A stretch of 39,595 nucleotides of DNA from a phage, in sequence record PZ544513.1, one strand, 5' to 3'. Shown one piece after another: positions 23,560 to 25,724 of this stretch (positions are counted from its first letter, which is position 1; each line of letters opens with the position of its first letter). The notes under the pieces are model-generated. The model saw nothing but the letters and a program-made list of their open reading frames with translations. It was not told where the DNA came from and ran no database searches. The position numbers were made by a program, and so were the translations under genes.

Positions 23560-23582
23560 ACTAAACTATCACTATAGGGAGA
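23560..23582 (+). promoter_or_regulatory. Phage RNAP promoter (phi10-like, full consensus) CTAAACTATCACTATAGGGAGACC with leader stem-loop
   Basis: Only copy matching GGGAGA at +1..+6; transcript begins GGGAGACC...GGTTTCCC hairpin, as in the T7 gene 10 leader. Confidence 0.85.
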
Positions 23583-23684
23583 CCAAGAGACAGACTCAAG
23601 GTTTCCCTATTACTTCAGTCCATACGGATTGGGCGTACAGTAAGTAATAAACTTTATCTTTCAATTGAATAGGAGAATTATCAT

Positions 23685-24734
23685 ATGGCAAACGTTCCGG
23701 GTCAGAAAGTTGGTACAGACCAAGGTAAAGGCAAATCTGGTTCCGACGCTCTGGCGTTGTTCCTGAAGGTCTTTGCTGGTGAAGTCCTGACCGCATTCAC
23801 TCGCCGCTCTGTAACTGCTGACAAGCATATTGTCCGTACCATTCAGAACGGTAAGTCTGCTCAGTTCCCGGTCATGGGACGCACCTCTGGGGTGTATCTG
23901 GCTCCGGGTGAGCGACTGTCCGATAAGCGTAAAGGTATCAAACATACCGAGAAAGTGATTACCATTGATGGTCTGCTGACTGCCGATGTGATGATTTTCG
24001 ACATTGAAGACGCGATGAACCACTATGACGTGGCTGGCGAGTACTCCAACCAGTTGGGCGAAGCTCTGGCTATCGCTGCCGATGGTGCGGTACTGGCTGA
24101 GATGGCTATTCTGTGTAACCTACCGGCTGCATCTGATGAAAACATCGCTGGTCTTGGCAAAGCGTCTGTGCTGGAAGTTGGTACTAAAGCAGGCCTGAAC
24201 ACTCCGGCTAAGCTGGGTGAAGCAATCATCGGTCAACTGACCATTGCTCGTGCGAAGCTGACATCCAACTACGTTCCTGCTGGCGACCGTTACTTCTACA
24301 CCACGCCGGACAACTACTCTGCAATCCTCGCGGCTCTGATGCCGAACGCTGCTAACTATGCTGCGCTGATTGACCCAGAGACTGGTAACATCCGTAACGT
24401 AATGGGCTTCGTGGTTGTTGAAGTTCCACACTTGACTCAGGGTGGTGCTGGGGAAACTCGTGGTGCCGATGGTATCACTATTGCGACTGGTCAGAAGCAC
24501 GCCTTCCCAGCTACTGCTACTGGTGATGTTAAAGTTGCTCTGGACAACGTTGTGGGCCTGTTCTCTCACCGTTCTGCTGTAGGTACTGTTAAGCTGCGTG
24601 ACTTGGCGCTGGAACGTGACCGTGACGTCGATGCTCAGGGCGACCTGATTGTTGGTAAGTACGCTATGGGTCACGGTGGTCTGCGTCCAGAAGCAGCAGG
24701 CGCACTGGTTTTCACAGCGGCGTCAGCGGGTTAA
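23685..24734 (+). CDS. 10A: Major capsid protein 10A (T7 gp10A homolog)
   Basis: 349 aa, colinear with T7 gp10A (LALFLKVF.GEVLTAF, KSAQFPV, EKVITIDGLLTADV, AILAALMPNAANYAALIDPE, VGTVKLRDLALER, KYAMGHGGLRPEAAGA). Confidence 0.98.
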   Translation: MANVPGQKVGTDQGKGKSGSDALALFLKVFAGEVLTAFTRRSVTADKHIVRTIQNGKSAQFPVMGRTSGVYLAPGERLSDKRKGIKHTEKVITIDGLLTADVMIFDIEDAMNHYDVAGEYSNQLGEALAIAADGAVLAEMAILCNLPAASDENIAGLGKASVLEVGTKAGLNTPAKLGEAIIGQLTIARAKLTSNYVPAGDRYFYTTPDNYSAILAALMPNAANYAALIDPETGNIRNVMGFVVVEVPHLTQGGAGETRGADGITIATGQKHAFPATATGDVKVALDNVVGLFSHRSAVGTVKLRDLALERDRDVDAQGDLIVGKYAMGHGGLRPEAAGALVFTAASAG

Positions 24735-24997
24735 CGACCTTTAAGGCCCTCTCTACAGAGGGTCCTACCTTAGAGACGTATAGTTCTACGGTGGGAACCA
24801 GCCTGAAGGTTGACTTCCCTGAGCTTTCAGATGTGACCGATTGGTCGCTGCTTGAGGTGACTACGCCTGATGGTGTTAGCTACTCCCGTAGAACCAACAG
24901 TCTCTACTTCAAGGCCACCTCTGGCGTGGAAGGTCTGGTGATTGTTGGGTATGACGGTACGCCTGTGCGTTCCTTCAACGTATCTTTCACAAACTAA
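23685..24997 (+). CDS. 10B: Minor capsid protein 10B, predicted product of a programmed -1 ribosomal frameshift at GGTTTTC (24707-24713)
   Basis: The -1 frame is open from upstream of the slip site to TAA at 24995-24997 (94 extra codons); the heptamer G GTT TTC has the same shape as the T7 gene 10 slip site. Confidence 0.6.
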
Positions 24998-25001
24998 TTG
25001 A

Positions 25002-25043
25002 AACCCCTTGGGTGCCTTCGGGTGCTTGAGGGGTTTTTTTTGC
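25002..25043 (+). terminator. T-phi-like intrinsic terminator for phage RNAP
   Basis: AACCCCTTGGGTGCCTTCGGGTGCTTGAGGGGTTTTTTTTG: G/C-rich hairpin plus U-run, closely resembling T7 T-phi (AACCCCTTGGGGCCTCTAAACGGGTCTTGAGGGGTTTTTTG) at the same position after the capsid gene. Confidence 0.9.
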
Positions 25044-25056
25044 TTAAGGAGGGACT

Positions 25057-25146
25057 ATGTTCCTTATTTACACAGGGTTAGCACTATTCGTCTTATTCTG
25101 GGCGTACCTGCTGCCCAGCTCACCGTCTAGCCCCTATGACCGCTAA
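25057..25146 (+). CDS. Hypothetical small membrane peptide (29 aa) between T-phi and gene 11
   Basis: ATG 25057 with RBS AAGGAGG (25046-25052); hydrophobic FLIYTGLALFVLFWAYLL; under the ORF-track size cutoff. Confidence 0.3.
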   Translation: MFLIYTGLALFVLFWAYLLPSSPSSPYDR

Positions 25147-25157
25147 GGAGTAAACCT

Positions 25158-25724
25158 ATGTCTCAATACATTCCACTTAATGCTAACGATGACTTAGATG
25201 CCATCAACGATATGTTAGCTGCTATTGGTGAACCAGCAGTCCTACAGCTTGACGAAGGTAACGCTGACGTCTCGAACGCTCAACGTATCCTGCATCGTGT
25301 TAATCGTCAGGTCCAAGCTAAAGGCTGGAACTTTAACATCAACGAAGCTGCTGTCCTGACGCCTGATGTCCAAGACAACAGGATTCGATTCCTGCCGTCT
25401 TACCTTCGGGTCATGACTGCTGGGGCCACCAGCTACTACAGCAACATGGGTGGATACCTATACGACCTGTCCACTCAGTCAACCACTTTCACCGACCCTA
25501 TAACGGTAGAGCTTGTTGAGATGAAACCGTTCTCGGAGATGCCTGTGGTATTCAGGGACTACATCGTTACCAAGGCCAGCCGTGAGTTCAACGCTAAGTT
25601 CTTCGGTAGCCCAGAGTCTGAACTGTACCTTCGTGAGCAGGAATCAGAACTCTATCAGCAGGTCATGGAATACGAGATGGACACTGGTCGCTACAACATG
25701 ATGTCCGACATCGGGAGGGACTAA
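25158..25724 (+). CDS. 11: Tail tubular protein A (T7 gp11 homolog)
   Basis: 188 aa; A..DL.AIND.LA.IGEP, RIL.R.NRQ.Q..GW.FNI, YIVTKASREFN..FFG.PE, YEMD.G.YNM colinear with T7 gp11. Confidence 0.95.
   Translation: MSQYIPLNANDDLDAINDMLAAIGEPAVLQLDEGNADVSNAQRILHRVNRQVQAKGWNFNINEAAVLTPDVQDNRIRFLPSYLRVMTAGATSYYSNMGGYLYDLSTQSTTFTDPITVELVEMKPFSEMPVVFRDYIVTKASREFNAKFFGSPESELYLREQESELYQQVMEYEMDTGRYNMMSDIGRD

Follow-up and report, generated by a model that had tools for sequence, protein, structure and literature searches.

The DNA analyzed here, referred to below as the window, is a stretch of 39,595 nucleotides (PZ544513.1) that constitutes a Kayfunavirus genome, i.e., one of the K1F-like phages within the T7 subfamily Studiervirinae. 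Around gene 10 (region 23560-25160), it is 99.9% identical to Escherichia phage vB_EcoP-101120B1-2 and >98% identical to many other Kayfunavirus genomes. The product of gene 10A matches the Gp10A-like family of Pfam (PF21703, E=2.2e-104), and its counterpart in MZ234022 (99.9% identical) is annotated as the major capsid protein. A promoter core, TCACTATAGGGAGA, was found as an exact match at 23569-23582; when up to two mismatches were allowed, the window contained 5 matches vs 0.32 expected. By analogy with the T7 promoter, this promoter-like site was extended to 23 nt. At the other end of the locus, a Tphi-like intrinsic terminator begins 3 nt past the stop codon of the proposed 10B protein and contains the motif CCCC (25005-25008). 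Its sequence is identical in K1F, and a similar terminator in T7 is annotated as Tphi. The features of the locus are as follows:

23560-23582, + strand: promoter-like site for the phage RNA polymerase, putative phi10 equivalent, upstream of gene 10
23685-24734, + strand: gene 10A, major capsid protein, zero frame, from the ORF list (349 aa, 36.3 kDa)
24707-24713, + strand: slippery heptamer G GTT TTC at Val342-Phe343, the proposed −1 shift site
24713-24997, + strand: predicted −1 frame extension of gp10B, from translation (94 aa plus TAA)
24746-24763, + strand: small hairpin, RNAfold minimum free energy structure (7 bp, 32 nt 3' of the heptamer)
24764-24795, + strand: second hairpin, adjoining the first (about −14 kcal/mol)
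24791-24997, + strand: 68-aa ORF with a GTG start, from the ORF list, lying within the 10B extension
25000-25045, + strand: Tphi-like intrinsic terminator, from a terminator scan (17-bp stem, T8 run)

Near the end of gene 10A, the GTT and TTC of the heptamer form zero-frame codons 342 and 343 of 349, in the X XXY YYZ register seen in T7 and 7 codons ahead of the 10A stop (24732-24734). The −1 frame is free of stops from 24659, 48 nt ahead of the heptamer, until the TAA at 24995-24997. Read in this frame after Phe343, the extension is HSGVSGLTTFKALSTEGPTLETYSSTVGTSLKVDFPELSDVTDWSLLEVTTPDGVSYSRRTNSLYFKATSGVEGLVIVGYDGTPVRSFNVSFTN (94 aa, HSGVSGLTTFK...SFTN), and the predicted gp10B is a protein of 437 aa and 45.8 kDa that exceeds 10A by 88 aa. 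The first-pass annotation of this DNA, made from the letters alone, had placed the heptamer in the codon register of T7 gene 10, had described a −1 frame open from upstream of it to the TAA, and had predicted a 94-aa extension in which ALVF is followed by HSGVSGLTT; all of this agrees with the sequence and its translation, and the extension is likewise longer than the 53 aa of T7, as had been expected. The tryptic peptide predicted to span the shift junction of gp10B is YAMGHGGLRPEAAGALVFHSGVSGLTTFK, and the predicted tail peptides are ALSTEGPTLETYSSTVGTSLK and VDFPELSDVTDWSLLEVTTPDGVSYSR. As a bare string, GGTTTTC is not enriched in the window (2 copies vs 3.8 expected). Since the string alone is unremarkable, what gives it weight is where it lies, the register it occupies, and the fact that relatives keep it. 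Where a Shine-Dalgarno-like stimulator might lie, about 10 nt 5' of the heptamer, there are only short GG-containing strings (GCAGGCG and GCTGGTG; AGGAG in phage Peacock), at a distance of 5-8 nt and within conserved Ala-Gly-Ala codons.

Relatives of the tail are widespread, being present in 455 phage records by tblastn, including those of Kayfunavirus, Przondovirus (KP32, K11), Citrobacter phage CR8, and others. A comparison of the gene 10 ends of related phages, as proposed in the first-pass annotation, was made with 68 loci (sources) drawn from GenBank phages and IMG/VR, the window counted in. An in-register G GTT TTC followed by an open −1 frame of 91-97 codons was found in 64 of the 68 sources (61 unique tail sequences). 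C GTT TTC occurs in two sources (L063 and L068) and A GTT TTC in a divergent one (L027), in all three cases in register and with the −1 frame open. A close relative, L022, keeps the heptamer and has a deletion of 159 nt that takes out half of the tail domain and most of the terminator; the tail is therefore dispensable, at least in the L022 lineage. The extension protein shares only 40-50% identity overall among Kayfunavirus, Przondovirus, and Caroctavirus, and despite this divergence the motifs VTDWS and RRTNxLYFK are invariant.

A canonical stem-loop or pseudoknot of the dnaX/IS type, 5-9 nt 3' of the heptamer, is absent from the window, and the nearest stable hairpin begins at +32. In this small hairpin, RNAfold pairs 24746-24752 with 24757-24763, giving a CCCUCU/AGAGGG core, a G.U closing pair, and a CUAC loop. 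The same CCCTCT/AGAGGG arms had been singled out in the first-pass annotation; the hairpin they form is real and lies 32 nt downstream, but at such a spacing it is not a canonical stimulator. It is also weak, with a predicted stability of about −8 kcal/mol. Among the 13 members of the window's clade, 95.6% of cells are paired and every change is one-sided, with no covariation for this hairpin and a shuffling control that was not significant. The hairpin that adjoins it, at 24764-24795, ranks second in stability among the local stem-loops of the window's gene 10, and 92.9% of its cells are paired in the clade, with one compensatory cell. For the window's hairpins, covariation did not reach significance, as the sequences vary too little.

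At the homologous position of the linker in Przondovirus, there is a hairpin with a 12-bp stem, which RNAalifold lengthens to about 18 bp (about −20 kcal/mol) and in which 98.4% of cells are paired. Two of its pairs are compensatory, AU having become GC in 13 sequences and CG having become UA in 11, with GU intermediates, counts that may stem from only one or two evolutionary events. These compensatory pairs needed non-synonymous changes on both arms. The linker hairpin tops the stability ranking of the 1.3-kb gene in 4 of 5 clade representatives, the window being the exception; it is the most stable of the gene in Przondovirus, CR8-like, and EV136-like phages, and its sequence differs from clade to clade. 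In the sister clades, the hairpins start about +20 to +30 after the heptamer. Synonymous variation in the window-like clade is reduced between the slip site and about +17 codons, where it ranks among the lowest 5% of gene windows; in Przondovirus, the reduction spans +5 to +12 codons. The pairing and compensatory changes of the hairpins, taken together with the depressed synonymous variation, make an RNA-level constraint downstream of the slip site likely. An Rfam search of 24500-25200 returned only chance-level matches, to NsiR1 and a CRISPR repeat.

Such a constraint might be taken to mean that the small hairpin at 24746-24763 is a classical downstream stimulator of −1 frameshifting, comparable to the stem-loops of dnaX or IS911. 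The hairpin exists and is conserved in its clade, and the strong stem-loops at the equivalent place in other clades, the double changes in Przondovirus, and the reduced synonymous variation all speak for this reading. However, the spacer is 32 nt here and 20-28 nt elsewhere vs 5-9 nt in known stimulators, so that the slipping ribosome would be out of contact with the stem; the window's own hairpin is weak and lacks covariation; the Przondovirus counts are subject to the reservation given above; and the known 3' effect in T7 maps to the terminator, >200 nt away, according to a 2016 recoding review (PMC5009743). We therefore consider a classical stimulator unlikely. A related proposal, that the distal stem-loop is a selected RNA element that tunes gene 10 frameshifting at a distance, is put forward only tentatively and is, in our judgment, doubtful. 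The stem-loop might pause a leading or terminating ribosome, and the next ribosome would then dwell on the slip site. If true, this would be a long-spacer stimulator unlike the 5-9-nt type, and it might bear on the long-range 3' effect in T7. We considered whether simple geometry could account for the distance of the hairpin, with a terminating ribosome lying against it or with ribosomes spaced as in disomes, and rejected this, as the numbers fit poorly. The distance from the slip site to the 10A stop is 3-6 codons between clades, so the distance from stop to hairpin varies, and for this reason no mechanism is claimed for the hairpin. A T7-like pairing between GGGUU (24728-24732) and AACCC of the terminator was likewise set aside, as the Przondovirus sequences lack the G run.

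Gene finders report part of the extension as a 68-aa ORF. Its GTG at 24791 is not preceded by a Shine-Dalgarno-like sequence, and the −1 frame holds no ATG, GTG, or TTG between the heptamer and 24791. Homologues of this ORF are called at 49-87 aa with inconsistent starts, set by whichever start codon is present, which bears out the earlier description of the ORF as one without a credible start of its own. In most GenBank records, the tail ORF appears as a separate hypothetical protein, and in some as a "minor capsid protein" CDS. Similarly, the 68-aa fragment was found in a collection of 15 billion proteins, mostly as "hypothetical protein," and the exact 437-aa gp10B sequence had no match in that collection.

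Coding selection was measured as pN/pS (Nei-Gojobori) in 15 unique sequences of the window-like clade and 39 of Przondovirus. Over the 19 codons from the 10A stop to the first start codon, pN/pS in the window-like clade was 0.18 in the −1 frame, the remaining frames giving 1.59 and 2.21. For the domain in the same clade, the −1 frame value was 0.25, and the other two frames ranged from 1.2 to 2.2 over linker and domain. In Przondovirus, the −1 frame gave 0.32 for the linker and 0.22 for the domain. A stop codon in the −1 frame of closely related genomes had been named in the first-pass annotation as an observation that would refute its prediction; none occurs in the 54 unique sequences (15 + 39), whose other frames contain 14 to 302 per segment. 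The −1 frame is thus under coding selection from the slip site on. Considering this pattern together with the shifting ORF starts, the selected protein begins upstream of any start codon, and ribosomes entering from gene 10 through the conserved heptamer would explain selection at codons that precede every available start.

These results bear directly on the possibility that the 68-aa ORF (24791-24997) is an independent small gene expressed from its own GTG or, as a variant, by termination and reinitiation after the 10A stop. Many records do annotate it as a separate CDS, and nearly all of the folded domain (extension residues 21-94) is downstream of 24791. However, the GTG has no ribosome-binding signal of the Shine-Dalgarno type, start positions vary among homologues, and the 19 codons upstream are under equal purifying selection and never contain a stop. 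Since the −1 frame offers no start codon from the 10A stop to 24791, there is no place for reinitiation, and an independent gene would have no need for a conserved, in-register heptamer. An independent gene is therefore highly improbable, and the 68-aa ORF is an annotation artefact within the predicted 10B extension.

The structure of the tail was predicted with AlphaFold2 from a 40-sequence alignment. Residues 1-20 of the extension are disordered in the model, and residues 21-94 form a seven-strand beta domain (pLDDT about 90), i.e., the tail is predicted to consist of a flexible linker of roughly 20 aa and a 74-aa Ig-like beta-sandwich. In the PDB, Foldseek ranked highest the Ig-like domain at the C terminus of gpV, the lambda tail tube protein (TM 0.56), followed by filamin repeats, capsid entries of phages N4 and S6, and other Ig-like folds. 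Against BFVD, a homologue named "minor capsid protein" in Pectobacterium phage PP81 came first (TM 0.87), ahead of phage Ig-like/BIG2 proteins. The sole sequence-family match was PHROG 7473, annotated "unknown function" (E=7e-37). A Pfam search of the tail at E<=1 yielded no family, a sub-threshold match to Peptidase_M14 being rejected as spurious, and a profile search of PDB sequences gave nothing significant. When the window tail was aligned with the Big_2 tail of T3 by hhalign, the probability was 0.1%. By sequence, then, the window tail is not a member of the recognised Ig-like families Big_2, I-set, and FN3. HMMER searches against 1.84 billion cluster representatives recovered the tail family only as short stand-alone ORFs; weak matches fell on multi-repeat Ig-like adhesins (BACON, Big_1, Big_2, Big_13), which lend support to the Ig-like fold class and define no family for the tail. 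Since its structural matches are Ig-like, its homologues are short ORFs only, and no Pfam family contains it, the tail appears to be an Ig-like domain of a narrow, phage-specific kind, carried by a flexible linker and distinct from Big_2. A review notes that Ig-like domains have repeatedly been appended to phage structural proteins via frameshifting, T3 10B included.

The same −1 product could in principle arise during transcription, if the phage RNA polymerase slipped on the run of four Ts and one U were deleted in some mRNAs. The slip site does contain this short homopolymer (TTTT), and the resulting protein would be equal to that of a ribosomal shift. However, four Ts are a very short tract for polymerase slippage. 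The unit that is conserved is also more than a T run, comprising the full heptamer register (GTT TTC and the preceding G), and for the identical site in T7 the recoding review describes a ribosomal shift with tRNA re-pairing (PMC5009743). Transcriptional slippage is accordingly even harder to credit than an independent gene. Least credible of all is the view that the −1 ORF is a decaying remnant whose expression has been lost, the slip site surviving only as Val-Phe codons of gp10A: the truncated L022 relative and the dispensability of T7-type 10B are what such a view would predict, but strong purifying selection without a single stop in 54 unique sequences from three genera, tail motifs that stay invariant amid extensive divergence, and a confident domain model all argue against it.

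We conclude that a programmed −1 ribosomal frameshift at G GTT TTC very probably yields gp10B, a capsid protein carrying an Ig-like tail. A fraction of ribosomes would slip back 1 nt with tRNA-Val and tRNA-Phe on the GUU and UUC of G_GUU_UUC; the shifted ribosomes would then decode GGU UUU C.., miss the 10A stop (24732-24734), and run to the UAA at 24995-24997. That the shift is ribosomal is taken from the T7 precedent, and its efficiency may be near that of T7, in which about 10% of gene 10 translations are reported to shift. The resulting gp10B would be the same as the major capsid protein over residues 1-343 and then continue into the linker and beta-sandwich. By analogy with T7, T3, and K1F, it may co-assemble with gp10A as a minor subunit of the shell, with the domain placed on the capsid exterior. 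Weak binding to surface carbohydrates is a likely role for the Ig-like domain, which is likely to be accessory and not essential.

The programmed −1 frameshift producing a 10B variant, as proposed in the first-pass annotation, is thus supported by heptamer conservation, by pN/pS, and by the joined CDS annotated in phage Peacock. It is not, however, a new prediction: the feature is the known T7-type gene 10 frameshift, and the near-identical Peacock already carries it in its annotation. What is added here is quantitative comparative support, recognition of the tail as Ig-like and distinct from Big_2, and a conserved distal hairpin that may be considered a candidate non-canonical modulator of frameshifting. 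The result is of use for annotation, as most Kayfunavirus and Przondovirus records either give the tail as a separate "hypothetical protein" or wrongly apply the name 10B to 10A. Phages of these genera are widely proposed for therapy (E. coli K1, Klebsiella, Salmonella), and a displayed Ig-like domain would bear on adhesion to mucus or cells, on immunogenicity, and on the use of a natural display site, such as has been exploited in K1F and T7. For the biology of recoding, the interchangeable tails that follow a single conserved slip site in gene 10 make up a natural series.

Among the closest known systems, Peacock (MK903279) is 98.4% identical over the region; its joined 437-aa −1 CDS is annotated as a minor capsid protein, and it differs from the window in a few tail residues and not in kind. 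The Klebsiella phages of Przondovirus (KP32, K11) have the same heptamer and register, a homologous tail of 96 aa (42-51% identity), and a hairpin at the equivalent position of the linker. They differ in that the tail is annotated as a separate ORF ("minor capsid protein") or not at all, the 10A stop is closer to the slip site (3-5 codons), and the hairpin is much stronger, as described above (12-18 bp). Citrobacter phage CR8 also has the same heptamer, with "tttt" annotated as the slip site, and a homologous 10B tail at 50% identity. The CR8 record states that 10B has "matches in mass spectrometry," in a note that names no junction or tail peptides, and the CR8 genome paper is silent on mass spectrometry of 10B. 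For Kvp1, peptides detected by mass spectrometry showed that 10B arises through a −1 shift at TTTTCA; with T7 and K1F, this makes three phages in which the slip site found in the window has been shown to function.

Other members of the subfamily share the arrangement and differ in the sequence of the tail or of the slip site. In T3 and phiYeO3-12, gene 10 likewise ends in a −1 shift that appends a linker and one Ig-like domain (about 75-80 aa). T3, however, slips on C CCA AAG, at a lysine, whereas the window has G GTT TTC, and Pfam assigns the T3 tail to Big_2 (E=4e-10), whereas that of the window has no Pfam match. The T7 site is G_GU U_UUC (PMC5009743), and T7 resembles the window in its Gp10A-like capsid family, in the identical heptamer, placed in the same register and a few codons short of the 10A stop, and in a 10B stop just upstream of the Tphi terminator with its CCCC. 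According to the same review, this CCCC influences gene 10 frameshifting, an unexplained long-range 3' effect (PMC5009743). In contrast to the window, with its 88 additional residues and a 94-aa tail containing an Ig-like sandwich, T7 10B is 53 aa longer than 10A and its tail is not Ig-like as the review describes it; the downstream hairpin lies at +14 to +44 in T7 vs +33 to +50 in the window. K1F, the type species of the genus, is identical to the window in its slip context, GCACTGGTTTTCA, as well as in the terminator, and a g10b::gfp fusion at the end of its −1 frame gave fluorescent virions. Its tail, however, is an unrelated, low-complexity peptide of 48 aa that extends 44 triplets beyond 10A. 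Since K1F keeps the recoding site and carries an unrelated tail, the tail module has been exchanged within the genus. Three unrelated tail modules therefore stand behind gene 10 in this subfamily, and two of them, the K1F and window types, share one slip site within a single genus.

Natural variants at the first base of the heptamer (G GTT TTC) occur at three related gene 10 loci (L063:1496, L068:1496, and L027:1399), where the variant forms C GTT TTC and A GTT TTC were observed. Since the -1 tail stays open and conserved in all three, the invariant core of the heptamer is GTT TTC. These variants might also serve as natural tests of the importance of P-site re-pairing.

Stem-loops were found on both sides of the slip site:
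A3 columns 39-81 (e.g., L006:521-563): Przondovirus stem-loop of 12-18 bp, starting 20-28 nt 3' of the heptamer.
Window 24668-24701, + strand: upstream hairpin (-14.8 kcal/mol), ending 6 nt upstream of the heptamer.

Two pairs of the Przondovirus stem-loop carry compensatory double changes, and a stem-loop 3' of the heptamer ranked as the most stable gene 10 hairpin in four of five clade representatives. Just 5' of the Przondovirus structure, a 24-nt block, AGCGTAAATACCTTTAGTGCTCGG, is near-invariant in 37 sequences, synonymous sites included. The upstream hairpin exceeds every other local stem-loop of the window's gene 10 in stability, and EV136-like and CR8 phages carry it too.

In a close relative (94% identical), locus L022 carries a deletion in the 10B tail:
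L022:1481-1700 (IMG/VR UViG_2974604219), corresponding to window 24868-25026: 159-nt deletion.

Short repeats (CCTGA.GG / CTTGAGGG) flank the missing sequence, and the -1 frame then continues into a downstream small hydrophobic ORF. The Ig-like domain loses its C-terminal half through this deletion, and the Tphi-like terminator most of its stem, which suggests that the domain, and perhaps also the terminator, is dispensable.

A small ORF lies between the terminator and gene 11:
Window 25057-25146, + strand: 29-aa hydrophobic ORF (MFLIYTGLALFVLFWAYLLPSSPSSPYDR).

It is preceded by a strong Shine-Dalgarno sequence (AAGGAGG) and is listed as hypothetical in MZ234022, a 99.9% identical record; comparison with Peacock and K1F showed it to be absent from both.

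Comparison of GenBank records MT862763, MW748991, MH172261, and NC_011043 (loci L002, L010, L006, and L007, respectively) showed that they disagree in 10A/10B labelling. In the U8 and IME278 records, "minor capsid protein (10B)" is the label given to the ORF of 10A, the KP32 record places "minor capsid protein" on the downstream fragment only, and the tail is without annotation in the K11 record.

The 10B tail has been exchanged inside a single genus, as seen when K1F (L011:1659-1811) is compared with window 24707-24997. The K1F tail is a 48-aa, low-complexity sequence unrelated to that of the window, whereas the slip site preceding the tail and the terminator following it are identical in the two phages. 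In T3, a different heptamer, C CCA AAG, precedes a Big_2 tail.
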